Shown here in pieces: positions 8,742 through 63,200 of a stretch of 64,000 nucleotides of DNA. Below the pieces are notes generated by a model. It made no database searches. It was not told where the DNA came from and was given only the letters and a program-made list of their open reading frames with translations. The DNA comes from Candidatus Krumholzibacteriota bacterium (GTDB lineage: Bacteria > Krumholzibacteriota > Krumholzibacteriia > JACNKJ01): assembly GCA_016933175.1 (NCBI GenBank), contig JAFGBK010000011.1, positions 1,254 through 65,253 of the forward strand, written 5' to 3'. How positions within the stretch are numbered: the stretch's first letter is position 1; each line of letters opens with the position of its first letter. Both the position numbers and the translations under genes were made by a program.

Positions 8742-8883
8742 GGCACCACCTTTCGCAGGGGATCGACCGAACGGTTCCGGTCCCGGGGGAATATGGACGT
8801 TCCGGGGAAGCCAAGGCAATGGCTTTTGCAGAGCGGCGGCGACGGAACGGACCGCGGGGGTCGCGATCGCGCTTGACGCGCGG

Positions 8884-8917
8884 CTTTCGATTTGACATTT
8901 TTCGAAACATCGAAACG
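8884..8917. promoter_or_regulatory. Operator-like palindrome/direct repeats (TTTCGA / TTTCGAAA / TCGAAAC x2) with TTGACA boxes in the divergent promoter region upstream of the ArsR-family gene
   Basis: Perfect palindrome TTTCGAAA at about 8900-8907; TCGAAAC repeated at 8902-8908 and 8910-8916; TTGACA at 8892-8897. Confidence 0.35.
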
Positions 8918-8962
8918 TGATTGGCCCGTCCGCGGGCCCCGCTCCAGAACGAGGAGGACGCC

Positions 8963-12876: not shown

Positions 12877-12885
12877 GAGGCGGGC

Positions 12886-15577: not shown

Positions 15578-15625
15578 TCGGCGACGGCCGCCTATACTGC
15601 CGGGAGTGAAATCAAGGGAGGCGCG

Positions 15626-16273
15626 ATGCGATTCTTCATCGATACGGCCAACCTCGAGGAGATCCGCAAGGCGGCGGCCATGGGCGTCCTCGACGGCGTG
15701 ACCACGAATCCCACCCTGCTCTCCCGCGAGGAGGGCGAGCCCCGCGAGCTGCTGCGGGAGATCTGCGCCATCGTCCCCGGCCCCGTGAGCGCCGAGGTGC
15801 TGGCCCTCGAGGCCGAGGCCATGCTGGTCGAGGGGCGCGCGCTGAAGAAGATCGCCGACAACATCGTCATCAAGGTGCCGGTTACCCTCGAGGGCCTCAA
15901 GGCCATCAAGACCTTCAAGGCGGAGGGCATCGACACCAACGCGACCCTGTGCTTCTCGGCGCCCCAGGCCCTGCTGGTGGCCAAGGCCGGCGCCACCTAC
16001 GTCAGCCCCTTCGTGGGCCGGCTGGACGACATCGGCGCCGACGGGATGGATCTCGTGGCCGACATCGTCCAGCTCTACCAGAACTACGGCTACGCGACCC
16101 AGGTCCTCGTGGCCAGCATCCGGCACCCCATGCACGTGGTGGAGGCCGGGCGGCTGGGCGCCGACGTGGCGACGATCCCCTACAAGGTCATCGCCCAGCT
16201 GGTGCGCCACCCGCTGACGGACAAGGGCATCGAGCTCTTCCTGGCCGACTGGAGGGCCAAGCACGGAGGCTGA
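15626..16273 (+). CDS. Fructose-6-phosphate aldolase / transaldolase (Tal 3B family)
   Basis: [13 protein letters not shown]...GVTTNPTLL...IVIKVP...ASIRH motifs of the short transaldolase/FSA family. Confidence 0.85.
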
Positions 16274-16276
16274 GGC

Positions 16277-17515: not shown

Positions 17516-17587
17516 GCCGGCAGCCCGTCTCCCGGCGGGCCTTGACGATCACCGCGCCCTGGCGGGCGCCGGGGGGAGGCGAGGGAT

Positions 17588-18883
<1,296 letters not shown>

Positions 18884-43117: not shown

Positions 43118-43161
43118 TGGCATAAGCATTGCTTGACAACACCTTCCCACCTCCCTATCAT
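43118..43161 (+). promoter_or_regulatory. Overlapping candidate sigma54 (-24/-12: TGGCAT-N5-TTGCT) and sigma70 (TTGACA-N17-TATCAT) promoters upstream of lptC-lptB-rpoN
   Basis: TGGCAT 43118-43123, TTGCT 43129-43133; TTGACA 43133-43138, 17-nt spacer, TATCAT 43156-43161; in an AT-richer 200-bp gap. Confidence 0.45.
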
Positions 43162-44557: not shown

Positions 44558-45940
44558 ATGGAAATGAAGATGAACCTGCAGCTGCGCCAGCGTCAGCAGC
44601 TCGTGATGACGCCGCGGCTGCAGCAGGCCCTGAAGCTGCTGCAGCTGCCAACGCTGGAGCTGGAGCAGGTCCTCAAGAACGAGGTCCAGGCCAACCCCCT
44701 CCTGGAGATCGAGGAAGACGACGACGACGAGCAGGACCGCGCGCAGCGGGAGCACGCGGACGAGCCCCAGGCGGGCAACCTCGACAACTGGGAAGACATC
44801 TTCAACGACGGCTTCGACATGCAGTACCAGGAGAAGGAGGATCTGTCCGAGGACTTCGTGGAGCGCGTGCCCGTGCACCGCCAGTCGGCCGGGGACAAGC
44901 TCCAGCGCCAGCTCCGCATGGTCACCAGCGACGCCGAGCTGCTGCGCATCGGCGAGTACATCATCGGCAGCCTCGACGACCGCGGCTTTCTCACGGTGGG
45001 GCTCGACGAGATCCGGAACGTCTTCCACATCGGCGAGAGCCGCGCCCGCGAGGCGCTGATCCTGGTGCAGAGCCTGGAGCCGCCGGGGATCGCCGCCCGC
45101 GACCTGCCCGAGTGCCTGCTGCTGCAGCTGGCGGCGCGGGGCATGGCCGACAGCCTCGTGGCGCGCATCATCCGCGACCACTTCAAGGAGCTGATGCAGC
45201 GCAAGTACCAGGAGATCGCCCGCAAGCTGAAGCTGGGGGTGGAGGAGGTGCAGGAGGCGGCGCGCTACATCGGCGAGCTGGATCCCAAGCCAGGCCTCGA
45301 GCTCAGCAGCGAGGAGCCCCACTACATCATCCCCGACCTGGTGGTCGAGGAGGTGGACGGCGAGTACGTCATCTACCTCAACGACCGCCACCTGCCGCGG
45401 CTGCGCATCGCCGACAGCTACAAGGACTACCTGCGCAAGGCCAGCAAGGACACCAAGGACTACGTCCAGGGCAAGCTGAACCAGGCGCAGTGGCTGATCC
45501 GCACGGTGGAGCAGCGCCGGGCGACCATGGTGAAGGTCATGGCCGCCATCATCGAGGAGCAGAGCGACTTCTTCGAGAGGGGCCCGCAGGCGCTCCGCCC
45601 CCTGACCCTGCAGCAGGTGGCCAGCAAGATCGGCATGCACGAGAGCACGGTCAGCCGCGTCACCAACAACAAGACCGTGCAGACGCCCCGCGGCATCTTC
45701 CAGCTCAAGTACTTCTTCTCCAGCTCCCTCAGCACCGAGGACGGGGAGGAGGTCAGCGCCAAGGCGGCCAAGAGCCGCATCCAGGAGATCGTTTCCAAGG
45801 AGGAGAAGAAGCGGCCCCTCAGCGACCAGAAGATCGCCGACATCCTGCGCCAGGAGGGACTGATGATCGCCCGCCGCACCGTGGCCAAGTACCGCGAGCA
45901 GCTGGGCATCCTGCCGGCGCGCCTGCGCAAGGAGTTTTAG
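44558..45940 (+). CDS. rpoN: RNA polymerase sigma-54 factor (true start may be the MNLQLRQ Met at 44570)
   Basis: N-terminal LQLRQRQQLVMTPRLQQALKLLQLP; C-terminal RpoN box ARRTVAKYRE. Confidence 0.9.
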   Translation: MEMKMNLQLRQRQQLVMTPRLQQALKLLQLPTLELEQVLKNEVQANPLLEIEEDDDDEQDRAQREHADEPQAGNLDNWEDIFNDGFDMQYQEKEDLSEDFVERVPVHRQSAGDKLQRQLRMVTSDAELLRIGEYIIGSLDDRGFLTVGLDEIRNVFHIGESRAREALILVQSLEPPGIAARDLPECLLLQLAARGMADSLVARIIRDHFKELMQRKYQEIARKLKLGVEEVQEAARYIGELDPKPGLELSSEEPHYIIPDLVVEEVDGEYVIYLNDRHLPRLRIADSYKDYLRKASKDTKDYVQGKLNQAQWLIRTVEQRRATMVKVMAAIIEEQSDFFERGPQALRPLTLQQVASKIGMHESTVSRVTNNKTVQTPRGIFQLKYFFSSSLSTEDGEEVSAKAAKSRIQEIVSKEEKKRPLSDQKIADILRQEGLMIARRTVAKYREQLGILPARLRKEF

Positions 45941-46083
45941 GGCGTGCTGGGCCTTGCCGCCCCGGGAGCCCGCAGCTATGCTTGGTGCGGAGCCTGGCCG
46001 CCCGACCGACGCGCCCGGAGGCTGGATGAGCCGTCGCCCCGCCATCGCGTTCCCCGGAAAACCAGACGACCGATCGCGCCCGT

Positions 46084-46108
46084 CCCCCGCCCGGGGGCGG
46101 GCCCTTTT
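46084..46108 (+). terminator. GC-rich hairpin (CCCGCCC/GGGCGGG) + TTTT between rpoN and hpf; candidate terminator/attenuator
   Basis: Direct reading; 25 nt upstream of hpf RBS. Confidence 0.4.
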
Positions 46109-46133
46109 GCGTGAAGTGAAAGGAGACTCGAGG

Positions 46134-46700
46134 ATGCAGATCACGGTCACCGGCAAGAAGCTAGACCTGACACCGGCCATTCGCAGCTACGCCGAGGAGA
46201 AGATCGGCAGGCTGGACAAGTTCGTGGACGGAGTCCGCGAGGCCCACGTCCTGCTGCGGGTGGAGAAGCATCGTCACATTGCCGAGGCCACGTTGAGGGG
46301 GAAGAGCGCCGACTTCTCGGGCAAGGAGCACAGCGAGGATCTCTATGCCGCCATCGACCGCCTCGCCGACAAGCTCGAGAGCCAGATGCGCAAGTTCAAG
46401 ACGCGCACCCTCAACCGCCGCAAGGGCGGCAAGCCGGGCGCCCGCACCAGCACCGCGGACTTCAGCACCGGCACCATCACCATCCTGGGCGAGGTCGAGG
46501 TCGGCGAGGAGGAGGCGCCGCGCCCGGTTATCGAGGAGAAGTTCATCACGCTCGACCAGCTGACGGTCGAGGAGGCCATCAGCCGCATGGAGGTGCACGA
46601 CAGCCACTTCTGGGTCTACAGCGACGCGGCGGAGGGCCGGATGTGCGTCGTCTACCGCCGCAGCGACGGCCACTACGGCCTCATCCAGGCCGAGGCCTAG
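46134..46700 (+). CDS. hpf: Ribosome hibernation promoting factor (long form)
   Basis: AAAGGAG RBS; MQITVTGKKLDLTPAIRSYAEEKIGRLDKF; C-terminal dimerisation domain. Confidence 0.85.
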   Translation: MQITVTGKKLDLTPAIRSYAEEKIGRLDKFVDGVREAHVLLRVEKHRHIAEATLRGKSADFSGKEHSEDLYAAIDRLADKLESQMRKFKTRTLNRRKGGKPGARTSTADFSTGTITILGEVEVGEEEAPRPVIEEKFITLDQLTVEEAISRMEVHDSHFWVYSDAAEGRMCVVYRRSDGHYGLIQAEA

Positions 46701-46709
46701 GGGGCGGCC

Positions 46710-47693
46710 GTGGAGATCGTCGAGCGGAACCTGCCCGTGGCGCGCTTCGTGGCCGAGACGGCCGAGCTGCTCGGCCTGCGGCTCGTCGGCGTCAGCCCCG
46801 AGTCGGGCACGGACATCACGGTGCCGGAGGTCTCGCGCCCGGGCTTCGTGCTGACGGGCTTCACGGACAAGTACCAGCACGAGCGGATCCAGATCCTCGG
46901 CGGGGCGGAGTTCTCCTTCCTGGAGACTCTGCCCCGCGACGAGGTGGCCGGGGCCATCGCCCACCTCTTTTCCCGGCCCGTGCCCTGCTTCATCGTCACC
47001 CGCGGCCAGGAGCCCTTTCCGGAACTGGTGCAGCAGGCCCACGAGCACGGCGTGCCCCTGCTGGTCACCGAGCAGCACACGACGCGCTTCATCCGGGCCC
47101 TGACGGGCTACCTCGAGGACTTCTTCTCGCCGCGGGGCAACGTCCACGGCTCGCTGGTGGACGTCTACGGCGTCGGACTCCTCGTCACCGGGCCCAGCGG
47201 CATCGGCAAGAGCGAGATCACCCTGGATCTGGTCGAGCGAGGCCACCGCCTCGTGGCCGACGACGTCGTCCAGCTCATCCGGCGCGGCGGCGTGCTCATC
47301 GGCCGCGGCAACGAGTTCCTCAAGCACTTCATGGAGATCCGCGGCGTCGGCGTCATCGACGTGCGCGAGATGTTCGGCATCCGCGCCATCCGCGTGCAGA
47401 AGCGCGTGGAGGTGGAGGTGCGCCTCGAGCGCTGGGTCCAGGGCAAGCACTACGACCGGGCCGGCCTCGAGTACCAGACCAGCCCCATCCTCGGCGTGGA
47501 GATCCCCAACGTGGTGCTGCCGGTGACCCCGGGCAAGAACGTCACCGTCATCGCCGAGACCATCGCCATGAACCACATGCTCAAGGTCTACGGGCTCAGT
47601 CCCGCCGAGCGCTTCAACCGCCAAGTCATGGAGGGCCTGGCCCGCCGCAACGAGGCCCGCGTCTATCACTACCTGCAGCAGGACGAGGAGTGA
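46710..47693 (+). CDS. hprK: HPr kinase/phosphorylase
   Basis: P-loop GPSGIGKSE, HprK C-terminal domain. Confidence 0.85.
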   Translation: MEIVERNLPVARFVAETAELLGLRLVGVSPESGTDITVPEVSRPGFVLTGFTDKYQHERIQILGGAEFSFLETLPRDEVAGAIAHLFSRPVPCFIVTRGQEPFPELVQQAHEHGVPLLVTEQHTTRFIRALTGYLEDFFSPRGNVHGSLVDVYGVGLLVTGPSGIGKSEITLDLVERGHRLVADDVVQLIRRGGVLIGRGNEFLKHFMEIRGVGVIDVREMFGIRAIRVQKRVEVEVRLERWVQGKHYDRAGLEYQTSPILGVEIPNVVLPVTPGKNVTVIAETIAMNHMLKVYGLSPAERFNRQVMEGLARRNEARVYHYLQQDEE

Positions 47694-47766
47694 GCCTGGG
47701 CTTGACTTCTCGCCGGGCAGACCGGACAATCCCCGCGTTCACGACTCCAGGCACACGGAGAGGACC

Positions 47767-48156
47767 ATGATCCCGGCCGTCATCGTCTGTCACGGCGCCC
47801 TCGGCGAAGCCTACCTGGAGGCGCTGGCGGGCATCTACGGCGAGGTCACGGACGTCGCGACCGTCACCAACGAGGACCTCGGGGCCGAGGAGCTGGAGTC
47901 GGCGGTGGCCGCGTCCCTCGAGCGCCTGGCGGGCGGCGGCATCGTCTTCACCGATTACTTCGGCGGCAGCTGCGCCAACGCCTGCCTGACTCTCCTGCCC
48001 GCGCGGCCGGCGGTGCGCCTGATCAGCGGCGTCAATCTTCCCGTGCTGCTCTACTACCTGGCCCACCGGCACGAGCTGGGCATGGACGAGCTGGTCCGGG
48101 GCATCGTCAACCGGGGTCACAACTCCATCCGGGAGCTGAGCCCGCCCGTCCTCTGA
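47767..48156 (+). CDS. PTS EIIA component, mannose/fructose/sorbose family
   Basis: VIVCHGALGEA (phospho-His region), GVNLPVLL; EIIA-Man fold size. Confidence 0.7.
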   Translation: MIPAVIVCHGALGEAYLEALAGIYGEVTDVATVTNEDLGAEELESAVAASLERLAGGGIVFTDYFGGSCANACLTLLPARPAVRLISGVNLPVLLYYLAHRHELGMDELVRGIVNRGHNSIRELSPPVL

Positions 48157-48169
48157 GGGCAGGGAGGCC

Positions 48170-48607
48170 GTGGATCTCCACCTGGATGATCGCCTGCTGC
48201 ACGGCCGCATCCTCCATGGCTGGGGACGGAGGCTTGGCGCCCGGCGCTATGTGCTGGTCATCCCGGCGGCCGGCGATCCCGCCCGCCGCGCCGTCTACGC
48301 GGCCGTGGCGCGCGAGGCCGGCGCCGAGCTGGTCCTCGCCGCGGCCGACGCGGCGCCGGCGCCCCGGGCCGGCGACTTCTGGCTGGCCGATGGGCCCGCC
48401 GCGGCCCTGGCGCTGTGGCGGGCCGGGCGGCGCTACCGGCGGCTGATCCTCATCGGGCTGCGCCGGTCCGCGGGGCGCCGCCTCGGACCCGATATCACGG
48501 CCGACGAGGCCGACCTGGACGCCCTGCGCGCCCTGCAGGCCGCGGGCGTGGGCTGTGAACGGCGGCGCTTTCCGGACGAGGCCGGGGAGCCGCTGCCGCC
48601 CCTCTGA
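48170..48607 (+). CDS. PTS EIIB component, mannose/sorbose family (divergent)
   Basis: GTG start; N-terminal LDDRLLHGRILHGW matches EIIB-Man RIDDRLIHGQV phospho-His motif. Confidence 0.55.
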   Translation: MDLHLDDRLLHGRILHGWGRRLGARRYVLVIPAAGDPARRAVYAAVAREAGAELVLAAADAAPAPRAGDFWLADGPAAALALWRAGRRYRRLILIGLRRSAGRRLGPDITADEADLDALRALQAAGVGCERRRFPDEAGEPLPPL

Positions 48608-48639
48608 ACCGGTCCGCCGGGCCGCGCGCGGGAGAACGC

Positions 48640-50787
48640 ATGCCGACCCTCATCCTCGGTGTCCACAACCATCAGCCCGTGGGTAACTTCGACCACGTGG
48701 TGCGCGAGGCCTACGACCGGGCCTACCGGCCCTTCCTGGAGCTCCTCGACGCCCACCCCGCCATGCGCCTCTGCGTCCACGTCTCCGGCCCCCTGATCGA
48801 GTGGATGAAGCGCGAGGCGCCCGACTACCTGGAGCGCCTGCGGGCCGGCGCGACGGCCGGGCGACTGGAGCTCCTGGGCGGCGGCTACTGGGAGCCCATC
48901 CTCACCGTCCTGACCGAGCGGGATCAGCACGCCCAGCTCGAGCGCATGAGCCGCGAGGTGGAGGCACTCTGCGGCCGCCGCCCCCGCGGCATCTGGCTGG
49001 CCGAGCGCATCTGGGAGCCCCACCTGCCGCGGGTCCTGCAGGCCCACGGCATCGAGTACGCGGCCCTGGACGACACGCACTTCCTGGCCACCGGCTTCAC
49101 GCCCGACCGCCTCGGCGGCTACTTCCTCACCGAGGAGGGGGGCCGCGCCCTGGCCCTGTTCCCCATCTCCAAGCGGCTGCGCTACCTGGTGCCCTTCCGC
49201 GCTCCGGCCGAGGTCCTGGCCTATCTGCGCGGAAGCGCGGCGCCGGGCGACGGCGACCTGGCCGGCGCCGACGCGGCCGACGCCGAGGGCGTGCCGGGTC
49301 TGCCGCTGGCCGTCCTCATGGACGACGGCGAGAAGTTCGGCGTCTGGCCCGGCACCAACGATCTCTGCTACACACAGGGGCGGCTCGCGAAGCTCTTCGG
49401 CGCCCTGGCCGCCGAGCCCGGCCTGCGCCTGGCCACCTTCTCCGAGGTGCTGGACGAGCAGCCGCCCCTCGGCCCGGCCTACCTGCCCACGGGCAGCTAC
49501 TTCGAGATGGGGGAGTGGGCCCTGCCCCTGGCCGGCCAGCAGAAGCTCGCCGCCCTCACCGCCCTGGTGAAGCAGCATGACGGCGGCCTGCAGCCCTTCG
49601 TCCGCGGCGGGTTCTGGCGGAACTTCTTCGCCAAGTACGAGGAGAGCCACTGGCTGCACAAGCGCATGCTCTGGGCGGGGCGCGCCGTGTCGGCCGCCCG
49701 CGAGGCCGGGACCGCCGACGCCGGCGCGCTGGCGGAGGCGGAGGACCGGATCCTGGAGGCCCAGTGCAACTGCGGCTACTGGCACGGCTTGTTCGGCGGC
49801 CTCTATCTGCCCCACCTGCGCCACGCGATCCTCGAGCGCCTGGTGCGCGCCGAGCACCTGGTGGCGGGTCCGGGCTACACTCTGGCGCAGGAGGACCTGG
49901 ACATCGACGGCGACGCGGAGATCGTCTGGACGAGCCCCGCGGCCCGCCTCTTCCTCAAACCACGCGGCGGCCGCGTGCGCGAGCTGGACCTGCGCGAGCC
50001 GGCCTTCCCGCTGACCAACGTCCTCGCGCGGCGCGAGGAGTTCTACCACCGGCGCCTGGCCGAGGCCCTGGCGCCCGGCGAGGCGGCCGACGCCGCCAAG
50101 AGCATCCACGACATCGTGCGGGCCAAGGAGACGGGGCTCGAGGAGTTCCTGGTCTACGATCCCCACCCGCGGGCCAGCCTGGAGGAGCGGCTCTACGAGA
50201 CCGGTGCCGACGCGGCGCCCTACGCCGGGAGCTGGCAGGACCTGGCCGACCTGCACTGCGCCGTCGAGCTCCCCGCGGCGCCCGACGGCGAGCTGGTCCT
50301 GCGCGGCGAGCGCGCCTTCGAGACCGGCCGCCGGCTGGAGCTGGTCAAGCGCCTGCGCTGGGCGGACGACGGCTGGACCCTGGCGGTGGATCTCGCGCTG
50401 TGCTATCACGGGCCGGGCCGCCTGGCCAGCCTCCTGGCCTCCGGCTGGAACCTGAACCTCCTGGCACCGGAGGCGCCGGATCGCCGCGTCCTCGTCGACG
50501 GCCGGCCCGCCGCCGATGCCCGGCTGCGCAGCCGCGGCTGGGAGCGCGACATCGGGCGCCTGGAGCTGCGCGATGACTGGAGCGGCCTGGCCGTCGCCCT
50601 GGCCGGCGAGGAGCTGGACGTCTGGCGGGAGCCCATCGAGACCGTCAGCCTCTCGGAGGCCGGCTTCGAGCGGGTCTACCAGGGCTCCTGGCTGGCCGTG
50701 GCCCGCCGCATCGAACTGGAATCGGGGCAGACCGCCCGTCTGCGCTACCGCCTCGAGCTCGCCCGCCTGGCGGGCGCGACGGCGTAG
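48640..50787 (+). CDS. Glycoside hydrolase family 57 protein (alpha-amylase / 4-alpha-glucanotransferase / branching-enzyme type)
   Basis: GH57 N-terminus ILGVHNHQPVGNF, WLAERIWEP, GH57 catalytic-region conservation; 715 aa. Confidence 0.75.
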   Translation: MPTLILGVHNHQPVGNFDHVVREAYDRAYRPFLELLDAHPAMRLCVHVSGPLIEWMKREAPDYLERLRAGATAGRLELLGGGYWEPILTVLTERDQHAQLERMSREVEALCGRRPRGIWLAERIWEPHLPRVLQAHGIEYAALDDTHFLATGFTPDRLGGYFLTEEGGRALALFPISKRLRYLVPFRAPAEVLAYLRGSAAPGDGDLAGADAADAEGVPGLPLAVLMDDGEKFGVWPGTNDLCYTQGRLAKLFGALAAEPGLRLATFSEVLDEQPPLGPAYLPTGSYFEMGEWALPLAGQQKLAALTALVKQHDGGLQPFVRGGFWRNFFAKYEESHWLHKRMLWAGRAVSAAREAGTADAGALAEAEDRILEAQCNCGYWHGLFGGLYLPHLRHAILERLVRAEHLVAGPGYTLAQEDLDIDGDAEIVWTSPAARLFLKPRGGRVRELDLREPAFPLTNVLARREEFYHRRLAEALAPGEAADAAKSIHDIVRAKETGLEEFLVYDPHPRASLEERLYETGADAAPYAGSWQDLADLHCAVELPAAPDGELVLRGERAFETGRRLELVKRLRWADDGWTLAVDLALCYHGPGRLASLLASGWNLNLLAPEAPDRRVLVDGRPAADARLRSRGWERDIGRLELRDDWSGLAVALAGEELDVWREPIETVSLSEAGFERVYQGSWLAVARRIELESGQTARLRYRLELARLAGATA

Positions 50788-50799
50788 GGAGGAGAGCCC

Positions 50800-51072
50800 G
50801 TGCGAGAGCGCAAGCTGGAAGTGGTCAACGCCAAGGGGCTGCACCTGCGGGCGGCCAGCGAGCTGGTCAAGCTCACCGCCACGCTGACGTGCCGCGTGTC
50901 CCTCTCCAATGGGATCATCGAGGTGGACGGCAAGAGCATCCTCGGCGTGGCGGCCCTGGGCGCCGCCAAGGGCACCGAGATCGTCGTCCGCACCGAGGGC
51001 GACGGCGAGCAGGACGCCCTGGACCGGATCACCGCCCTGTTCACGCGGGGGTTCTACGAGAATGTCCCCTGA
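50800..51072 (+). CDS. ptsH: Phosphocarrier protein HPr
   Basis: GLHLRAASELV (His-15 region), GKS (Ser-46 region). Confidence 0.85.
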   Translation: MRERKLEVVNAKGLHLRAASELVKLTATLTCRVSLSNGIIEVDGKSILGVAALGAAKGTEIVVRTEGDGEQDALDRITALFTRGFYENVP

Positions 51073-52846
51073 GCGCACCGGCATGCGCCGCTTCATGGGG
51101 CGTCCCGGTGCTCCGGGCATCGCCCAGGGGACGGTGTTCGTCTACGACCCCGACCTGCCCGCGGCCACGGCCCGCCAGGACGACCCGCGCGACGCCGAGA
51201 CGGAACTCGCGCGCCTGGACGCCGCCATCGCGATGGCGGAGGCCGAGATCCTGGACGCGCGCGAGCACGTCCTGGAGGAGCTGGGCGAGGACCACGCGCG
51301 CATCTTCGATGCCCACCGCCTCATCATGAAGGACGAGACCCTCGTGGGCCAGGCGCGCCAGTACATCCGCGAGGGCTGGAGCGCCGAGACGGCCTTCGGC
51401 GGCGCCTGCCAGAACATCGTGCGCGCCTTCCAGAGCCTGAACGGCGACCAGCCGGACCGCACCGGCGACCTGCGCGACGTGCAGCGCCGGGTCACCGGCC
51501 ACCTGCGCGGCGGGCGCGTCTCGGGACTCGGCGACCTGGCGTCGCCGGTCATCGTCGTCGCCCGCGAACTGAGCCCCTCGGACACGGCCAGCATGCCACG
51601 CGACAAGGTGCTCGGCTTCATCACCGAGCGGGGCGGCGAGACGAGCCACTCGGTGATCCTGGGCCGCAGCCTGGGCATTCCCGTGGTGGTGGGGGTCGAG
51701 GGCCTGCTGACGCGCGTGCAGTCGGGCGACGCCATCATGCTCGACGGGCATACGGGGCAGATCGTCATCAACCCGGACGCCAAGACGCAGGCGGAGTTCG
51801 AGAACCTGCGCGCCGCCTACGAGGCCCTCGAGGCCGAGAGCCTGCGCTTCAAGGACCACCCGGCCGAGACCCGCGACGGCCGGAACATCGAGCTGCTGGC
51901 CAACATCGAACTGCCCGAGGAGGTGGAGGCCGTCCTCAGCCACGGCGCGGCGGGCGTCGGCCTCTTCCGCACCGAGTACCTCTTCCTGACCCGACCCGAC
52001 TTTCCCGGCGAGGAGGACCAGTACCTGGCCTACCGCGGCATCCTGCGCAGCGTGGCGCCAGACCCGGTGATCATCCGCACCATGGACCTGGGGGGCGAGA
52101 AGGTGGCCTCCTACATGGAATTCCCCCGCGAGGACAACCCCTCGCTGGGCTGGCGGGGCGTGCGCTACGCCTTGGACCTCGAGGAGGTCTTCCGCACCCA
52201 GATCCGCGCCATCTTCCGCGCCAGCGTCTACGGCGAGCTGCGTCTCATGGTGCCCATGATCACGCGGATGGAGGAGATCCGGCGCGTGAAGGTCATCATC
52301 GAGGAGGTCAAGGGGGAGCTCGTCGCGCGCGGCCAGTCCTTCCGCGACGACGTCCCCGTGGGCGTCATGGTGGAGACGCCGAGCGCCGTGGTCATCGCCC
52401 ACCTCCTGGCCAGGGAGGTGGACTTCTTCAGCATCGGCACCAACGACCTGATCCAGTACTCCCTGGCCGTGGATCGCGACAACCGGAAGGTGCAGGGCCT
52501 CTACGATCCCTTCCACCCGGCCATCCTCCGCCAGATCAAGCGCACCGTGAAGGCGGCCAAGCAGCAGGGCATCCCGGTGGGCATCTGCGGCGAGCTGCCG
52601 GAGGATCCTCTCTTCACCATCCTCCTCATCGGCCTCGGCCTGGACACGATCAGCGTCAACCCCTTCCGCGTGCCCGAGATCAAGCGCCTCATCCGCAGCA
52701 TCACCTACGACCAGGCCAAGAGCCTGGTGGTCAGCGCCTGGCGCTACGCGACGGGGGCGGAGATCCGCCGCGCCGTGGGGCGCCAGGCCGCGCGCAAGTT
52801 CCCCGAGATCGCCGATCTGCTCGCCCGCGACGAGGAACCGTCGTGA
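51062..52846 (+). CDS. ptsI: Phosphoenolpyruvate-protein phosphotransferase (Enzyme I)
   Basis: Start MSPERTG overlapping ptsH; GGETSHSVILGRSLGIPVVVG, PEP-utilising domain. Confidence 0.85.
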   Translation: MSPERTGMRRFMGRPGAPGIAQGTVFVYDPDLPAATARQDDPRDAETELARLDAAIAMAEAEILDAREHVLEELGEDHARIFDAHRLIMKDETLVGQARQYIREGWSAETAFGGACQNIVRAFQSLNGDQPDRTGDLRDVQRRVTGHLRGGRVSGLGDLASPVIVVARELSPSDTASMPRDKVLGFITERGGETSHSVILGRSLGIPVVVGVEGLLTRVQSGDAIMLDGHTGQIVINPDAKTQAEFENLRAAYEALEAESLRFKDHPAETRDGRNIELLANIELPEEVEAVLSHGAAGVGLFRTEYLFLTRPDFPGEEDQYLAYRGILRSVAPDPVIIRTMDLGGEKVASYMEFPREDNPSLGWRGVRYALDLEEVFRTQIRAIFRASVYGELRLMVPMITRMEEIRRVKVIIEEVKGELVARGQSFRDDVPVGVMVETPSAVVIAHLLAREVDFFSIGTNDLIQYSLAVDRDNRKVQGLYDPFHPAILRQIKRTVKAAKQQGIPVGICGELPEDPLFTILLIGLGLDTISVNPFRVPEIKRLIRSITYDQAKSLVVSAWRYATGAEIRRAVGRQAARKFPEIADLLARDEEPS

Positions 52847-53934
52847 GGGCGGACGCCCGCGCCCGCCTGGCCGACAGCGCGGCCCTGCGCGCCGCCGATC
52901 CCGGCGACATGCTGGGCAAGGTGGCGGCCTTCCCGGAGCGCTACGCGGCGGCCCGCGACGCCGCGCTCCCCGCCCTGCCCGCGGACCGGGCGCCGTCGCG
53001 CATCCTGGTGGGGGGCATGGGCGGCAGCGGCATCGCCGGCGCGCTCGTCGCCGGCTGGCTGGACTGGCGCCCCGGCCCGCCGCGCCCCCTACTTGCCTTC
53101 GGTGGCTACGAGCTGCCGCCCACGGCGCCCGGCGACCTGCTGGTGCTCTGCAGCCACTCGGGCGACACCGAGGAGGTGCTGGCCCTCCTGGCGGCGGCCC
53201 TGGCGCGGCCGGATCTGCCCATGGTGCCCGTGGCGGCGGGCGGGCGCCTGGCCGCGCGCGCCGCCGACGCGCGCGCCGCCGGCGCGCCCGTGGGCGAGAC
53301 GCTGATCCTGCCGGGCGGCATGCCGCCGCGCGCCGCCCTGCCGGCCATGCTGGGCCGCCTCCTGGCCCTCCTGGCGCGCCTGGGCTGGCCGTCCCTCGCG
53401 GCCGGGGAGGAGGCCGCCCTGCGCGCCGACCTCGCAGCCGTGGCCGCCGACTGCGGTCCCGGCCGTCCGCCAGGGGAGAATCCGGCCAAGGACCTGGCCC
53501 TGGCCCTGGGCGACGCGGCGCCCGTCTGCGTGGCCCTGGCGCCGGCCTACGCGCCTGTGGCGCGCCGCCTGCGTTGCCAGTTCGAGGAGAACGCCAAGCG
53601 GGCCGCCCGCGACTTGATCCTGCCCGAGCTGCACCACAACAGCTGGGTGCCCTGGACGGGCGGCGACTCCCTGGGCGCCGCCCTCTGGCTGGGGGAGGCC
53701 GACGCCCATCCCCGCACGCGGCGGCGCCGCGAACTGAGCGAGGCCGCCCTCGCCGCCGCCGGCCTGCCAGCCCTCGCCCTGCCCGCGCGCGGCGGCGAGC
53801 CGCTGGCCCGCCTCTTGACGACGGTGCTGCTGGGGGACTTTCTTAGCGTCTATCACGCCCTCATGCGGGATGTCGATCCGACGCCGGTCGACGCCCTCGC
53901 CGCCATGAAGGCCCGCCTTGCCGACGAGGAGTGA
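52843..53934 (+). CDS. SIS-domain bifunctional phosphoglucose/phosphomannose isomerase-family protein
   Basis: SIS VGGMGGSGIAG, CSHSGDTEE; PGI/PMI (archaeal-type) family-like C-terminus. Confidence 0.55.
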   Translation: MRADARARLADSAALRAADPGDMLGKVAAFPERYAAARDAALPALPADRAPSRILVGGMGGSGIAGALVAGWLDWRPGPPRPLLAFGGYELPPTAPGDLLVLCSHSGDTEEVLALLAAALARPDLPMVPVAAGGRLAARAADARAAGAPVGETLILPGGMPPRAALPAMLGRLLALLARLGWPSLAAGEEAALRADLAAVAADCGPGRPPGENPAKDLALALGDAAPVCVALAPAYAPVARRLRCQFEENAKRAARDLILPELHHNSWVPWTGGDSLGAALWLGEADAHPRTRRRRELSEAALAAAGLPALALPARGGEPLARLLTTVLLGDFLSVYHALMRDVDPTPVDALAAMKARLADEE

Positions 53935-53935: not shown

Positions 53936-54934
53936 GTGAAGCCGACCGCCATCGTCCCCGCCGCCGGCGTGGGCACGCGCCTGCGCCCCCACACCTGGAG
54001 CCTGCCCAAGGCCCTGCTGCCCGTGGCCGGGCGGCCGGTCATCGGGCACATCCTCGACCAGCTCCTCACGGTCGGCGTGGAGCGCGTGGTCCTCGTGGTG
54101 GGCTACCTGGGCGATCGCCTGGTGGACTGGGTGCGCGAGCACTACGACCTGGAGGTGGACTTCGTCGTCCAGGAGCGGCGCCTGGGCCTGGGCCACGCCA
54201 TCCACACCACGGCCGAGCGCTGCCCGGCGGGCCCGGCGCTCATCGTCCTCGGCGACACCATCGTCCAGGCGGACCTGTCCGGACTCCTGGCGGCGCCGGG
54301 CCACGGCATGGGCGTCAAGGCCGTGGACGACCCGCGGCGCTTCGGCGTCGCCGAGGTCGCGGACGGCCGCATCGTCCGCCTGGTGGAAAAGCCCGCCGCG
54401 CCGACGAGCGACCTGGCCCTGGTGGGCCTCTACCACCTGCGCGACGTGGCCGCGCTCCACGAGGGCCTGCGCTACCTGGTCGCCGGCGACCGGCGCACGC
54501 GCGGCGAGTACCAGCTCACCGACGCCCTCCAGTGGATGATCGACCACGGCGAGCTCCTCAGCCCCTTCCCCATCGCGGGCTGGTTCGACGTGGGCAAGCC
54601 CGAAACCTGGCTGGCGACCAACCGCAGCCTCCTGGCCGGCGCGCCGGTTCCGGCGCCCCGGCCCGGCGTGACCTTCCACCCGCCCGTCTGGGTGCCCGAT
54701 TCGGCCGTCGTCGCCGAAAGCGCCATCGGACCCTTTGTCAGCGTGGGCGAATCGGCTAGAATAATGAGCTGCCGGATCGAGAACAGCATCATCGGCGATG
54801 GGACCGAGCTCGCCGGCTGCCGGCTCGAGGACTCGCTCCTGGCGCCGCAATGCCGCCTGAAGGATCTCCAGGGCAGCTTCAACCTGGGAGAGGAAAGCCG
54901 GGCCCGCGGGGCGACGCCCCCGGACGGGCCCTGA
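53936..54934 (+). CDS. Sugar-1-phosphate nucleotidyltransferase (NTP_transferase + left-handed beta-helix)
   Basis: GTG after GAGGAG; [25 protein letters not shown] signature; C-terminal hexapeptide repeats. Confidence 0.75.
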
Positions 54935-54948
54935 CGATAGGAGAGACC

Positions 54949-56145
54949 GTGCCCGACACCTACCCCGACCTGTTCACCTCCGAGTCCGTCACGGACGGCC
55001 ACCCCGACAAGGTGGCCGACCAGATCTCGGATGCCGTCCTGGACGACATCCTGGCGGAGGACGCGGGGGCCCGCGTGGCCTGCGAGACCCTCGTCACGAC
55101 GGGGATGATCCTCGTCAGCGGCGAGATCACGACCACGCACTACGCGGACATCCCCGCCATCGCCCGGCAGGTCGTCCATGACATCGGCTACACGGGCACG
55201 CGCATGGGCTTCAACCACGAGACCTGCGCCGTCCTGACCAGCATTGACAAGCAGAGCCCCGACATCAACCAGGGCGTGGACCGCAACCTGGCCGACCCCG
55301 AGCAGCAGGGCGCCGGCGACCAGGGCATGATGTTCGGCTACGCCTGCCGCGAGACCCCCGAGCTGATGCCTCTGCCCATCATGCTGGCCCACCGCCTGGT
55401 CCGCCGCCTGGCCGAGCAGCGCCGCGCCGGCGCGCTGCCCCTGGCCTTCCCCGACGGCAAGAGCCAGGTGACCGTCCGCTACGAGGGCCGCCGGCCCGTG
55501 GCCGTCGAGGCCGTGGTCGTCTCCACCCAGCACGACGAGAGCTGGTCGCTGGGGGACATCACCGATGCGGTGACGGCCAAGGTCATCCGGCCCGTGCTGG
55601 CAGAGAGCGGCTGCGATCACGACGGCTGCCAGCTCCACATCAATCCCACGGGCAAGTTCGTCCAGGGCGGCCCGGCCGCCGACACGGGCGTGACGGGCCG
55701 CAAGATCATCGTCGACACCTACGGCGGACGCGGCCGGCACGGCGGCGGGGCCTTCAGCGGCAAGGATCCCTCCAAGGTGGACCGCTCGGCCTCCTACCTG
55801 GCCCGCTACATCGCCAAGAACCTCGTCGCCGCGGGCCTCGCCGACGAGCTGGAGGTGCAGCTGGCCTACGCCATCGGCGTCGCCGATCCCGTGAGCGTCC
55901 GCGTGGACAGCTTCGGCACCAACCGGGTGGACGAGGCCGAGATCGTGGCGGCCGTCCGGGAGCTGTTCCCGCTCAAGCCCGGGCTCATCATCCGGGATCT
56001 CGATCTGCTGCGGCCGCAGTACCGGCGCACCGCCGCCTTCGGGCACTTCGGCCGCGAGGGGGAGGGTTTCCGCTGGGAGGACACCGACAAGGTCGCTGCG
56101 CTGAAAAGCCGATTCAACGTCAGCGCCAACACGCGGGAGCGATAG
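54949..56145 (+). CDS. metK: S-adenosylmethionine synthetase
   Basis: GTG start; [40 protein letters not shown]. Confidence 0.9.
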
Positions 56146-56146
56146 C

Positions 56147-57418
56147 ATGAGCACCAAGCAGATGGAGCACAAGGTCGCGGACCTCTCGCTGGCTCCGGCC
56201 GGGCGCGAGAAGATCCAGTGGGCCGAGAGCCGCATGCCGGTCCTGATGGCCCTGCGCGAGAAGTACGGCCAGACCCGGCCCTTCGCGGGCTTCCGCATCG
56301 CCGGCTGCCTGCACGTCACCAAGGAGACGGCCGTCCTGGTGGAGACCCTCGTCGCGGCCGGCGCCGAGGTGGCCTGGTCCGGCTGCAACCCCCTCAGCAC
56401 GCAGGACGACGTCGCCGCCGCCCTGGCCGCCGGCGGCGTGCCCATCTTCGCCTGGCACGGCATGAACACCGCGGAGTTCTACTGGGCCATCGACGAGTGC
56501 CTGGGCCGCCGGCCCAACCTGACCCTCGACGACGGCGCCGACCTCATCTTCAGCGCCCACGCGCGCCACAAGGAGCTGGCGAAGACGAGCATCATCGCCG
56601 GCACCGAGGAGACGACCACGGGCGTCCACCGCCTGCGGGCCATGGCCGAGGACGGCAAGCTGCTCTACCCGGTGGTGGCCGTCAACGACGCCGAGACCAA
56701 GTGGGATTTCGACAACGTCTACGGCACGGGCCAGTCGAGCATCGACGGCATCCTGCGCGCCACGAGCATCCTGCTCGCGGGGAAGAACTTTGTCGTGGCG
56801 GGCTACGGCCACTGCGGGCGCGGCGTCGCCATGCGGGCCGCCGGCATGGGGGCGAACGTCATCGTCACCGAGGTCAAGCCCACGGCGGCCCTCAAGGCCA
56901 TCCTCGACGGTCACCGGGTCATGACCATGGACGAGGCCGCGGCCCTCGGGGACGTCTTCATCACCGCCACCGGCATGAAGGACGTCATCGTCGCCCGGCA
57001 CTTCGCGGCGATGAAGGACGGCGCCGTGATCTGCAACACCGGCCACTACGACTGCGAGATCAAGATCGACGACCTCACGGCCCTGGCCGGCGCGGGACGC
57101 GCCATCCGGCCCAACAACGAGCAGTACACCCTGCCCGACGGGCGCCGCGTCTTCCTGCTCGCCAAGGGGCGACTGGTCAACCTGGCGGCGGCGGAGGGGC
57201 ATCCCTCCGAGGTGATGGACATGTCCTTCGCCAACCAGTTCCACGCCCTGCTCTGGATGAGCCGCGAGGGCAAGGACCTGGCGCCCGCGGTCTACGACAT
57301 CACCGAGGAGCAGGACCAGGAGATCGCGGCCCTCAAGCTGGAGACCATGGGCCGGCGCATCGACACGCTGACGCCCGACCAGGTCGCCTACGCGCGCGAC
57401 TACGCCGCCGGCACCTAG
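56147..57418 (+). CDS. ahcY: Adenosylhomocysteinase
   Basis: NAD-binding VVAGYGHCGRGVA, family-wide conservation. Confidence 0.9.
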   Translation: MSTKQMEHKVADLSLAPAGREKIQWAESRMPVLMALREKYGQTRPFAGFRIAGCLHVTKETAVLVETLVAAGAEVAWSGCNPLSTQDDVAAALAAGGVPIFAWHGMNTAEFYWAIDECLGRRPNLTLDDGADLIFSAHARHKELAKTSIIAGTEETTTGVHRLRAMAEDGKLLYPVVAVNDAETKWDFDNVYGTGQSSIDGILRATSILLAGKNFVVAGYGHCGRGVAMRAAGMGANVIVTEVKPTAALKAILDGHRVMTMDEAAALGDVFITATGMKDVIVARHFAAMKDGAVICNTGHYDCEIKIDDLTALAGAGRAIRPNNEQYTLPDGRRVFLLAKGRLVNLAAAEGHPSEVMDMSFANQFHALLWMSREGKDLAPAVYDITEEQDQEIAALKLETMGRRIDTLTPDQVAYARDYAAGT

Positions 57419-59982: not shown

Positions 59983-60231
59983 CTGTTTCCTCTTTTGGGA
60001 CAACGACTTAACTGGAAGGGCGAGTGTACGTTACCCCTGCTCACCCCGACAAGGGAATAATGGGCCGCCGGACCCGCTCCGTCGAGCGGTGACGGGGGCC
60101 GACCCTCCCAGCGGCACGGCGCGGACGCGCGGCCCCGGCGCGACCGGGATGGAGCCTGTCCTCCGTTCGGGACAGCCGCGTCCACTCGGGGAGACAGTAC
60201 GCCCGGCCGCTGCCGTGAGGAAGGCCGCCCG

Positions 60232-63200
60232 ATGACCCGACCGCGGAAGCCGCAGCGCACCCGTCGCCGTTCCGGTGCGCTCCTGGCGGCGGCGCTGCTG
60301 CCGGGCCTCCTCCTCGCCGCCGGCGCCGCCCGCGCCGATCTGCTGCCCCCGCCCGAAATCCCCCGCTTCGGCCTCTATGCCGCCTGGCTGGAGGAGCGCC
60401 TCTACGCCCGCGAGGGCTGGGTGCTGGGCATGAACGCGCGCCACTGGCTGCCGCCCGACCTGCTGCCGCGGGGCTGGGACGACTACTGGACCGACGAGGT
60501 CCGGGTCCTGCCCGAGACGGACCTGGTGCTCTGGCTGCGCCGGCCCGCCATTCTCGCCCGCCTGGCGCCCCTGGCCGGCGGCGCCGATCCCTTCGGCAAC
60601 GCCGTGCGCGCCGCCTGGCCGGGCGTCCAGCGCCGCGAGCTGCTGCCCCGGCAGGCCTTCCTGGAGCGCACCCTGCGCGAGCGCCAGCGCCGCCTGATCC
60701 TGGACAAGGCCGCCCAGACGCGCGCGGTGGTGGCCCAGGAGGGCGCCCGCGGCTCCCTCATCGACATCACCATTCCCCTGAGCCTGCCCAGGAGCATCGA
60801 GCGCGTGGTGGGCCGCGGCGAGAAGAGCAACATCACCGTCACCGGCCGGGAGTCCATCACCTTCAGCGGGGAGACGACGCGCACGAACAAGTTCCTCGCC
60901 GACGAGTCCGGCCGCGGCCAGCCCCTGTTCCCCCGCCTGGAGATGAAGCAGGACCTGCAGGTGAAGCTCAGCGGCACCGTCGGCGAGAAGGTCCACGTCG
61001 AGGTGGAGAACAACAGCCTCGTCACGGGCGAAGGCGCCAACAAGATCCGCATCCGCTACGAGGGCGACGACGACGAGATCATCAAGCTCATCGAGATGGG
61101 CGACACACAGCTCAGCCTGCCCAGCTCGGGCCTCATCAGCTACTCGACCACCAACAAGGGCCTCTTCGGCATCAAGGTCCTGGGCAGCCTCGGGCCCCTG
61201 GACTTCACGGCCATCGCCAGCAAGCAGGAGGGGGAGCAGTCCAGCCGCACCTTCAACAACACCGGCTCGGTGGTGCAGAGCGACTACGTGGCCGACACCG
61301 GCTTCCTCGCCAACCAGTTCTTCACCCTCGACCATCCCGTCCAGGCCTCCCAGCCCGGCGCCTGGACCGTCGATCCCGTCACCCTGCACGTGTTCGTGGA
61401 CGACCTGCTGCCGCCCAGCCCCCAGGGCGAGGTCCAGTACGCCGCCTTCCTCTACGTGGACCTCGACGGCGACGGCCTCGGCGACGAGGCGGTGATCGAG
61501 GGCGGCGTCAGCAGCTTCCGGCTTCTCGATCCGGAGATCGACTACCAGGTCTGGCGGGACACCAACGGCAACTTCCGCGCCATCCAGCTGAACTCCCCTC
61601 TCCAGGAGAGCCACGTGCTGGCGGTCAGCTACGAGGCCTTGGACGCCGACAGCGTGCGCCACGCCGTCGGCACCGTGACCCTGACCGGCGTGCCGGGCTG
61701 GTTCTCCATCGAGGACATCGACGTCCTGGAGCCCGGCGATCCCGAGGCGCTGCAGCTCGAGCTGATCAAGCCCGAGAACTACACGCCCGAGAGCCCCACC
61801 TGGGACTACATGATGCGGAACGTCTACCGGCTCGGCGGCCGCAACATCGACTACAGCAGCCTCGAGGTGGAGGTCCACCGCATCAGCACGAGGCCGGATC
61901 CCTCGCACCCGGTGGACAGCAGCGTTCCCTATCTGCGCGCCTTCGGCCTGGACCAGAGCGCCGCCGACAACAATCCCGACACCTTCGGCCACGACGGCAA
62001 GGTGGACGCCTTCTGGGTGGACGCCGGTGAGGGCCTGCTCTTCTTCCCCCATTACCGGCCCTTCGATCCGCCGACGGCGCTCGTGAGCGACTGGACGCGC
62101 GCCTCGGAGGCCGACACCGCCAACGCCTTCGCCCTGGCGGCGACCGACCTGAACGCCTCCCTGTACGACGTGCCGCGGCGCGAGCTGCTCAAGAACCCGG
62201 CCTACAGCAAGTTCCTGATCCGCTTCAGCAGCTCCACGGTGGCCAGCCGCTTCAACCTGAACGCCTACGACATCCTCGACGGCAGCGAGGTGGTCATCCT
62301 CGACGGGCGCCAGCTCTCGCGGGGAACGGACTACCAGATCGACTACTTCTCCGGCGAGGTGGAGCTCGTCGGCAACGCCGCCGCCACGCTGACGCCCGAC
62401 AGCCGCGTGTCCATCACCTACCAGTACCAGCCCCTGTTCGGCGGCGGGAAGAGCAACCTCGTCGGCCTGCACGGCACCTACAACTTCGGCGAGAAGAACA
62501 AGGTCTCCAGCGCCTGGCTCTACGAGTCGCGTTACAGCGGCGCGCGCCGCCCGCGCCTCGGCGAGGAGAGTACGCGCAACGTGGTGGGCAACGTGCTGGG
62601 CAACTTCAGCGTCGAGCCGGCCTTCCTGACCCGGGCGGTCAACTGGCTGCCCCACGTGGACACCGACGCCCTGAGCACGGTCAACCTCAGCGGCGAGCTG
62701 GCGGTGAGCTTCCCCAACCCCAACGTGGACGGCGCCGCCTACCTGGACGACATGGAGGGCGCCGAGGACGCCGACGAGCTGAGCCTGCACCGCACCCAGT
62801 GGTTCCTGGCCAGCGAGCCCGCCGACGTCATCCGCGTGCCCGGCGGCGCCGACATCCCCGTGCTGCCGGCGGCCCGTGCGACCTACCCCTACTGGTTCCA
62901 TCCGCAGGGCACCACGCGGCGCGGCGACTTCAACCTGAACCTGCCGTCCCAGGAGGCCGAGGAGGTGGTGGAGGTCCTGCAGCTCAAGGTTCCCGTCAAC
63001 CTGACGGCCGCCCAGGAGGAGGCCTACCCGCCCCTGGCTGCGGTCAGCGCGGCCAACGAGGCCCTGGGCGACTCGATCTGGATGGGCCTGATGCGGGGCT
63101 TCGCCGGCGAGGGTCTGGACCTGAGCGAGGCCGAGTACCTGGAGATTTGGGTCAACGACTTCCAGCAGGATCCGGACACCCGCACGGGCCGCATCCACTT

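Follow-up and report, generated by a model that had tools for sequence, protein, structure and literature searches.

Phosphotransferase systems (PTSs) that have no permease are established sensors of carbon and nitrogen status; to our knowledge, they have been studied almost exclusively in Proteobacteria, and few of their downstream targets have been identified. The alpha-proteobacterial permease-less PTS, with a mannose-class EIIA (EIIA-Man) and HprK, is a regulatory phosphorelay (PMC2937029). For the gene cluster linked to rpoN, Comas et al. (2008) proposed that a mannose-class transporter was once encoded there, that its IIB, IIC and IID components were lost in most lineages, and that it is still present in Desulfovibrio vulgaris (PMC2405797). 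PTSs of this kind, linked to rpoN, lacking a permease and descended from a mannose-class system, are thus already known, and permease loss is a published idea. Further, HPr regulates the glycogen phosphorylase of E. coli, as reviewed (PMC11046441). Here, we analyze a 64-kb stretch of DNA from a Candidatus Krumholzibacteriota bacterium (the window; about 72% G+C, with genes chosen by their signature of G+C at third codon positions, GC3). Beside rpoN, its string of pts genes contains the gene of a glycoside hydrolase family 57 (GH57) enzyme, and this observation is confirmed. The locus is probably a soluble sensory or regulatory PTS remnant that is expressed together with GH57 alpha-glucan turnover, and it points to an undescribed link between a PTS signalling system and alpha-glucan metabolism.

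Permease loss from a mannose-class operon beside rpoN

On the forward strand of the window, the gene order is pyrG, kdsA, kdsC, kdsD, lptC, lptB, rpoN, hpf, hprK, EIIA-Man, EIIB-Man, GH57, ptsH, ptsI, a phosphoglucose/phosphomannose isomerase-family gene (PGI/PMI), a sugar-1-phosphate nucleotidyltransferase gene (NTP), metK and ahcY, as assigned with Pfam and NCBIfam, with kdsA/C/D, lptC and lptB preceding rpoN-hpf (Table 1). Exactly the same order recurs in five more loci, contributed by four other organisms (L001, which lies on a 3.6-Mb contig, L002, L088, L089 and L090), and the GH57 enzymes of these loci are 60-90% identical to that of the window; because these loci come from independent assemblies, the order is not an assembly artefact. 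Together, the window and the five loci make up the permease-less clade. All the soluble PTS components named in the original prediction are present, with intact domains and phospho-sites, and they look functional; its coordinates, its gene list and its 715-aa GH57 enzyme were also correct, the sole refinement being the start of Enzyme I (EI), which is better set at position 51062, where an ATG overlaps the HPr stop codon by 11 nt, as it does in the relatives.

No permease gene accompanies these components. When EIIC and EIID proteins from sister genomes were compared with the whole 64-kb window by tblastn, only noise was returned, which extends the earlier claim that neither is encoded nearby to the full window; both genes are likewise missing in L001, L002, L088, L089 and L090, where 15-22 kb around the locus were examined. 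In more distant Krumholzibacteriota (L003, L004, L006 and L007; GH57 41-49% identical), the locus reads hprK-EIIA-EIIB-GH57-EIIC-EIID-ptsH-ptsI-PGI-NTP within the same neighbourhood. A metagenome scan with the sister-clade EIID returned ten loci, and GH57 stands directly before EIIC in 6/6 of those reaching far enough upstream. Moreover, the order EIIA-EIIB-GH57-EIIC-EIID-ptsH-ptsI recurs in Elusimicrobiota (L029 and L034), Firestonebacteria (L066), FCPU426 (L035) and an unclassified metagenome-assembled genome (MAG; L051), and two loci that are cut at GH57 (L081 from Elusimicrobiota and the unclassified L059) show the part from GH57 through EIIC and EIID to ptsH-ptsI.

Since this order is shared with Elusimicrobiota, Firestonebacteria and FCPU426, the complete operon, hprK-EIIA-EIIB-GH57-EIIC-EIID-ptsH-ptsI, is ancestral, and since the sister Krumholzibacteriota carry it at the same place, the window clade deleted EIIC and EIID. 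The locus is a recently degenerated transporter operon, a complete mannose-class PTS minus its permease. The two genes are gone without a trace, and the GH57-HPr junction of the window clade is now 12 nt long with a GGAGG ribosome-binding site. GH57, which was originally described as an insertion into a regulatory PTS, is instead an old member of a complete mannose-class operon, with its place between IIB and IIC.

Every phospho-site and catalytic residue that was checked in the locus is intact. In particular, HprK has the Walker A motif GPSGIGKSE and the motif MEIRGVGVIDV; HPr has His15 (GLHLRAA) and Ser46 (GKSILG) when aligned to what we take to be the E. coli and B. subtilis HPr sequences; and EI has the motifs GGETSHS and GICGE, its PEP-utilisers_N domain starting about 13 residues past the start codon. 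In alignment with the presumed sequence of E. coli ManX, the VCHG of EIIA matches GTHG and keeps the phospho-His (His10), while the DDRLLHG(R) loop of EIIB is kept and its His corresponds to His175. The only EIIA in the window belongs to PF03610, the Man class, and neither EIIA-Ntr (PtsN, PF00359) nor a further PTS domain was found among the window open reading frames (ORFs) scanned; with Pfam, the other ORFs scanned show housekeeping functions only. The suggestion that the system is analogous to PTS-Ntr and occupies the same position holds for its placement downstream of rpoN-hpf and not for its descent: the system is not homologous to PTS-Ntr, as it has a Man-class EIIA, an EI that lacks the GAF domain, an HprK of full length and an EIIB.

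The orphaned EIIB and the conserved GH57 gene

Across the permease-less clade, the amino acid identity of EIIB is 40-53%, the lowest of ten genes in 6/6 pairs; in the permease-bearing clade it is 63-69%, in the mid to upper range of the genes and above EIIA in every pair. For example, L001 and L002 share 53% identity in EIIB, 87% in HprK and 81% in EIIA, and the values for L003 and L004 are 69%, 72% and 58%. The number of nonsynonymous substitutions per site (dN) between L001 and L002 is 0.44 for EIIB and 0.08-0.12 for HprK, HPr and EIIA. Because an extreme GC3 bias compresses the ratio of nonsynonymous to synonymous substitutions (dN/dS) among distant clade members (pS of about 0.4 at 60-85% amino acid identity), distant pairs were used for within-pair rankings only, and the closest pair, the window and L089 (dS 0.11-0.28), was relied on; here, dN/dS is 0.50 for EIIB vs 0.13-0.32 for the other twelve genes.

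Homologues of EIIB are few, only 26 in 5.8 billion clusters. In an alignment of 26 EIIB sequences (A3), 24 of them of the permease-less type, D6, R8, L10, H11 and W18 are invariant, and the phospho-His loop is invariant in 26/26. The 24 permease-less-type EIIBs share the N-terminal consensus MDLHLDDRLLHGRILHGW, together with GDFWLTD, (I/V)IGLRD and FP. The motif NVGG(M/L)H..GK, common to E. coli ManX and the permease-bearing clade, is replaced by (I/V)IGLR in 24/24 of them. An AlphaFold2 (AF2) model of EIIB has a predicted local distance difference test (pLDDT) score of 91, its top matches in the Protein Data Bank (PDB) are IIB-Man, IIB-Sor, IIB-Lev and AgaV at template modelling (TM) scores of 0.72-0.83, and it superposes on 1VSQ (1VSQ_C), 1NRZ, 1BLE and 3EYE. 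These characteristics can be read as relaxed constraint combined with the remodelling of a conserved region, with the phospho-acceptor site apparently kept under purifying selection.

A Thermodesulfobacteriota MAG (L057, positions 11187-18281) is an independent case of an EIIB retained without a permease. Its cluster, rpoN-hpf-hprK-rapZ-EIIA-EIIB-ptsH-ptsI, has EIIA and EIIB and no EIIC or EIID, with ptsH directly after EIIB; this EIIB is still canonical (98.6 bits), and a GH57 gene lies 3 kb upstream of rpoN.

The GH57 enzyme of the window matches the 4-alpha-glucanotransferase of Thermococcus litoralis (1K1W) at E=1.9e-118 over residues 4-518. Its nucleophile E122 corresponds to E123 of 1K1W and its acid/base D229 to D214, both invariant in 89 homologues, and it is predicted to be an active 4-alpha-glucanotransferase; since its catalytic domain already begins at residue 4, too early for a signal peptide to precede it, the enzyme is also predicted to be cytoplasmic. 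A neighbour-joining (NJ) tree placed the GH57 enzymes of the window clade with Acidobacteriota, and a xenologous replacement was considered; it is unsupported, as both raw and Dayhoff-recoded distances put the permease-bearing Krumholzibacteriota closer. Around the closest relatives of the window GH57 outside the clade (L005, L086 and L087; about 55% identity), the neighbouring genes form a starch-utilisation cluster with GDE_C, CBM48/AMPK1_CBM proteins, an SBP_bac_1 binding protein and a 1028-aa protein with GH57, CBM53 and FlgD_ig domains.

Genome contigs were also searched with a profile built from the GH57 alignment, a cross-phylum sample only, which gives no within-phylum frequencies and whose listed matches include two Krumholzibacteriota loci and no close relative. 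Among the matches listed, about 20 of 80 GH57 loci in GTDB species representatives have hprK, ptsH or rpoN within 10 kb; the chance expectation for such linkage is well below 1%, for a single locus in a 3-4 Mb genome. Home-made iterative hidden Markov models (HMMs) took in spurious overlapping ORFs in high-GC loci (for example, a 'PGI' inside GH57), and the key calls were checked again by Pfam. In at least six named phylum-level lineages (Krumholzibacteriota, Hydrogenedentota, Elusimicrobiota, NC10, Firestonebacteria and FCPU426), the place of GH57 is between hprK and ptsH.

The EII genes around it vary. The complete architecture is found in the sister Krumholzibacteriota, Elusimicrobiota, Firestonebacteria, FCPU426 and the unclassified MAG L051, and EIIC and EIID are missing from the window clade; EIIB is missing as well from L050 (Elusimicrobia) and L060 (NC10), which read hprK-rapZ-..-EIIA-GH57-HPr; and all EII genes are missing from four Hydrogenedentota loci, of which L014, L019 and L040 read hpf-hprK-(rapZ)-GH57-ptsH-ptsI and L024 ends before ptsH. 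Further, L046 (Rokuibacteriota) has rpoN-hpf-GH57, and GH57 lies within a few kb of the rpoN-hpf-hprK cluster in L083 (Zixibacteria) and in the Desulfobacterota-type MAGs L018, L061 and L057. That GH57 stays between hprK and ptsH while the EII content varies is the strongest argument for its placement being selected for something other than transport. In L050, moreover, DUF4912 and a GH57 branching enzyme (PF03065 and BE_C) are encoded between rapZ and EIIA (6693-9265), and this branching enzyme is a second alpha-glucan enzyme inside an hprK...GH57-ptsH-ptsI locus. The conservation of GH57 in relatives, which the original prediction had proposed as its check, extends to every relative examined, and no EIIC/EIID pair adjoins the locus; the proposed link to alpha-glucan metabolism gains comparative support from the GH57-hprK/ptsH linkage in many phyla and from the L050 branching enzyme.

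In the GH57 tree, the enzymes with and without PTS linkage are mixed, and the PTS-linked ones group roughly by phylum, which indicates that the linkage is old or recurrent and that no special enzyme subfamily is involved. As a separate observation, outside Krumholzibacteriota rapZ comes after hprK and ahead of EIIA or GH57, often together with a CofD/YvcK-like gene (L029, 7226-9041; L019, 3814-4701; L060, 8478-9347; L057, 14904-15767); rapZ and CofD/YvcK-like genes are found in no Krumholzibacteriota example of the locus.

Features and transcription signals of the window

The features of the locus are collected in Table 1. The genes are closely spaced, with gaps of 9 nt (hpf-hprK), 73 nt (hprK-EIIA), 13 nt (EIIA-EIIB), 32 nt (EIIB-GH57), 12 nt (GH57-HPr), -11 nt (HPr-EI), -4 nt (EI-PGI) and -17 nt (PGI-NTP). 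The start of PGI/PMI overlaps the end of ptsI, and its placement is identical in all Krumholzibacteriota loci.

Table 1. Genes and candidate transcription signals of the rpoN-pts-GH57 region of the window.
Feature	Position (nt)	Strand	Basis
rpoN (sigma-54), 460 aa; neighbourhood marker	44558-45940	+	TIGR02395, 456 bits; three Sigma54 Pfam domains
Terminator-like GC-rich hairpin with T-run, between rpoN and hpf	46078-46102	+	consensus scan; 10-bp stem, 9 GC pairs
hpf, long-form ribosome hibernation factor	46134-46700	+	PF02482 and PF16321, TIGR00741; start internal to ORF 45954-46700, models begin at its residue 61
hprK, full-length HPr(Ser) kinase/phosphorylase, 327 aa	46710-47693	+	TIGR00679, 338 bits; N- and C-terminal domains
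Sigma-70-like promoter candidate TTGACT-17-GACAAT, hprK-EIIA spacer	47702-47730	+	consensus scan
EIIA, mannose class, 129 aa	47767-48156	+	PF03610, 49.8 bits
EIIB, mannose class, divergent, 145 aa	48170-48607	+	PF03830 (PTSIIB_sorb), only 42 bits (cutoff 27)
GH57 AmyA/4-alpha-glucanotransferase-type enzyme, 715 aa	48640-50787	+	PF03065, 122 bits; PF09094, 104 bits; PF09095, 138 bits
HPr (ptsH), 90 aa	50800-51072	+	PF00381, 81.6 bits
Enzyme I (ptsI), 594 aa, without GAF domain	51062-52846	+	TIGR01417, 558 bits
Bifunctional phosphoglucose/phosphomannose isomerase-family protein (PGI/PMI)	52843-53934	+	PF10432; NF006425, 179 bits, below its cutoff
Sugar-1-phosphate nucleotidyltransferase (NTP), 338 aa	53918-54934	+	PF00483; best NCBIfam rmlA_long, 214 bits, below its cutoff

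The 73-nt spacer between hprK and EIIA (47694-47766), with its promoter-like motif, is found in the permease-less clade only; TTGAC(T/A)-17-GGA..AT hexamers are kept in five aligned permease-less loci, and the flanks vary. In the permease-bearing clade (L003, L004, L006 and L007), hprK and EIIA overlap by 4 nt. The loss of the permease thus goes together with an apparent separation of hprK from the EII genes in transcription. A consensus scan found no terminator-like site between EIIA and the nucleotidyltransferase gene, and the number of terminator-like sites in the region is not above that in shuffles. A sigma-54 dependence of the pts-GH57 unit was also considered; from rpoN to the nucleotidyltransferase gene, no intergenic site matches the sigma-54 promoter consensus (TGGCAC-N5-TTGCW, up to 2 mismatches), there is no excess over shuffles, and no promoter site supports it.

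Further upstream, a sigma-54-like element (TGGCAT-N5-TTGCT, 1 mismatch) directly abuts a strong sigma-70-like promoter match (TTGACA-17-TATCAT, 11/12) at 43118-43161; lptC, with which the lptC-lptB-rpoN string begins, lies about 60 nt downstream of both, and rpoN may lie behind a dual promoter. In the permease-bearing L003 (6561-7487) and L004 (6379-7305), rpoN and hpf are separated by a lipoyl-synthase-like radical SAM gene, which the window clade lacks. On the other side, metK and ahcY (54850-57418; ahcY at 56147-57418) follow the pts block in all Krumholzibacteriota loci, and such a neighbourhood of PTS and methyl-cycle genes recurs in alpha-proteobacteria, where hprK-ptsM-ptsO also adjoin sahH (PMC2937029). 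At 60061-64000, an ORF of more than 1313 aa runs past the end of the window and has no Pfam match in its available part; the gene at this position in the relatives encodes about 2140 aa with a SprA_N domain, which suggests type IX secretion.

Interpretation and relation to known systems

The reading that we favor, a soluble regulatory PTS remnant expressed with GH57, predicts how the locus would work. Phosphate would pass from phosphoenolpyruvate (PEP) to EI, to His15 of HPr, and then to EIIA and EIIB, with HprK gating this flow via Ser46 of HPr. With no permease to unload phosphate onto a sugar, the chain would report PEP/pyruvate and glycolytic state, like other permease-less PTSs, and the role of the system appears to be regulatory rather than in transport. 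Because its phospho-His loop is kept while the canonical motif is replaced, EIIB would probably be a soluble end-acceptor or a regulator with a new partner. GH57 would act in the cytoplasm as a MalQ-like 4-alpha-glucanotransferase, disproportionating chains of maltodextrin and glycogen. A single transcript from the promoter-like site upstream of EIIA could carry the genes for EIIA, EIIB, GH57, HPr, EI, PGI/PMI and the sugar-1-phosphate nucleotidyltransferase, so that the carbon-status sensor, alpha-glucan turnover and hexose-phosphate interconversion would share a single expression unit. Through the proposed co-expression of GH57 with the phosphorelay, glucan turnover would be tied to PEP and glycolytic status; HPr or EIIB might also control the GH57 enzyme directly, at the post-translational level.

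Several points weigh against this reading. The raised dN/dS of EIIB fits slow decay as well. No sequence feature separates PTS-linked GH57 enzymes from unlinked ones, the catalytic residues being common to both, and the starch-utilisation cluster that houses the closest relatives of the window GH57 outside its clade (L005, L086 and L087) has no PTS, so that GH57 needs no PTS context. Co-transcription is inferred from gene spacing and a consensus promoter; the promoter and terminator candidates are consensus matches, not evidence of function, and the consensus may not be that of the phylum. Outside Krumholzibacteriota, the loss rather than gain of EII genes is suggested by parsimony. A genome-wide lack of the permease is unproven: a profile search built on the EIIDs of GH57-linked operons gave 176 matches, none of them on the long contigs of clade members, and it is uninformative, as the EIIDs of L003 and L004 themselves were unrecognisable there too.

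It is unlikely that the locus is a working transporter, whose EIIA and EIIB serve an EIIC and EIID encoded elsewhere while GH57 processes the imported alpha-glucoside or its product. The retained phospho-histidines of EIIA and EIIB would suit such a role, the 64 kb of the window are only part of a MAG that is itself incomplete, and in the gnb operon of Lactobacillus casei a mannose-class PTS is indeed encoded together with a cytoplasmic glycosidase for the imported sugar. However, EIIC and EIID are absent both from the 64-kb window and from the 15-22 kb surroundings of the five further loci, the replacement of NVGGMH..GK extends to every permease-less-type EIIB, and EIIB evolves 2-7 times faster than its neighbours in the permease-less clade only; motif loss and a fast EIIB are what would be expected once the permease partner is gone. 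A doubtful, yet more serious, alternative is that nothing is coupled at all, EIIB being a decaying relic, HprK, HPr, EI and EIIA an ordinary regulatory PTS, and GH57 an ordinary glycogen or maltodextrin enzyme held in place by inherited gene order. Here, the dN/dS of EIIB, the highest of the locus, is as expected of a relic, and the interspersed GH57 tree with its shared catalytic residues and the PTS-free cluster of the nearest outgroup are as expected of an ordinary enzyme. Still, a relic would not be expected to keep its phospho-His loop in all 26 sequences, to conserve new clade-specific motifs, to retain a confidently predicted fold or to show a dN/dS of 0.5 rather than 1, and inertia alone is hard to accept for a GH57 gene that, whatever EII genes flank it, keeps its place between hprK and ptsH across six or more named phylum-level lineages.

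A tighter connection, in which HPr (free, P-Ser or P~His) or P~EIIB allosterically controls GH57, or in which EIIB~P phosphorylates GH57-released glucose in a permease-independent, PEP-driven reaction, is very improbable. In favor of such direct coupling, the EIIA-Man-type domain of DhaM passes its phosphate to a kinase that is soluble, every complete operon has EIIB directly upstream of GH57, HPr comes directly after GH57 wherever EIIC and EIID are missing and the contig extends past GH57, the surface of EIIB is remodelled yet conserved, the PGI/PMI gene overlaps the end of ptsI, and HPr controls glycogen phosphorylase in E. coli (PMC11046441). Against it, the evidence within the locus is one of gene neighbourhood, PTS-linked GH57 enzymes have no feature of their own, and we know of no IIB-Man that phosphorylates a sugar without IIC and IID. 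The boldest version also seems unlikely to hold: GH57 would be the true functional partner of an ancient HprK/HPr/mannose-class PTS module in at least six named phylum-level lineages, and in the window clade the orphaned EIIB would have taken on a new task, either regulating GH57 in soluble, phospho-dependent form or donating phosphoryl groups to the glucose that GH57 releases. If true, hexose phosphate would be made from storage glucan by a PEP-driven route that needs no permease.

The locus offers a natural deletion series, with versions that are complete, without EIIC/EIID, without EIIB and EIIC/EIID, and without all EII genes, and with GH57 in every one of them. Because GH57 is present throughout this series, its glycogen or maltodextrin turnover is a candidate output of HprK/HPr in poorly studied phyla. 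The orphaned EIIB, with its conserved phospho-site and changed motif, is a clean case for how PTS components gain regulatory roles, and these questions can be addressed with recombinant proteins, without culturing the organisms. Three elements appear to be new: GH57 as a conserved operon member in at least six named non-proteobacterial lineages, a series of EII gene contents that always includes GH57, and an orphaned EIIB whose phospho-site is kept while its canonical motif is replaced. No description of an operon combining GH57 with a PTS was found in a literature search of incomplete coverage, which is absence of evidence only, and the passages of PMC2405797 that matched a term search do not mention GH57.

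Compared with known systems, the locus shares with the alpha-proteobacterial PTS of Brucella, Sinorhizobium and Agrobacterium (EI-Ntr, NPr, EIIA-Ntr, a protein resembling EIIA-Man, and also HprK; PMC2937029) the lack of a permease, a Man-class EIIA, HprK, an HPr-type carrier with both His and Ser, and a nearby S-adenosylhomocysteine hydrolase gene (ahcY in the window); that system is a carbon-status phosphorelay, as the locus of the window probably is too. In contrast, the alpha-proteobacterial system has an HprK without the N-terminal domain, a GAF-containing EI and an EIIA-Ntr, has no EIIB and no GH57, and does not lie downstream of rpoN-hpf, whereas the window has a full-length HprK, a canonical EI, a retained EIIB and an embedded GH57. 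With PTS-Ntr and the proposed ancestral rpoN cluster of Proteobacteria (PMC2405797), it shares the placement downstream of rpoN-hpf; it differs in having neither EIIA-Ntr (PF00359) nor a GAF-containing EI, in lying outside Proteobacteria, in being an intermediate that keeps IIB, and in its GH57. Canonical mannose PTSs (E. coli ManXYZ, B. subtilis Lev and Klebsiella Sor) have the same EIIA and EIIB families, conserved phospho-histidines and EIIB fold, whereas the window has no IIC or IID, has NVGGMH..GK replaced, and has a glycoside hydrolase-family gene between IIB and the place of IIC in its relatives.

The GH57 enzyme has the three-domain architecture, the nucleophile Glu and the acid/base Asp of the T. 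litoralis 4-alpha-glucanotransferase (1K1W); unlike that enzyme, it is bacterial, and the genes around its own are those of a PTS operon, not those for maltodextrin ABC transport and phosphorylase, and its transferase rather than amylase activity is predicted only. Finally, the HPr-glycogen phosphorylase pair of E. coli (PMC11046441) involves a GT35 phosphorylase, not a GH57 enzyme, and has no operon linkage; it is, nonetheless, a precedent for a PTS phosphocarrier that acts directly on an alpha-glucan enzyme, as might be the case here.

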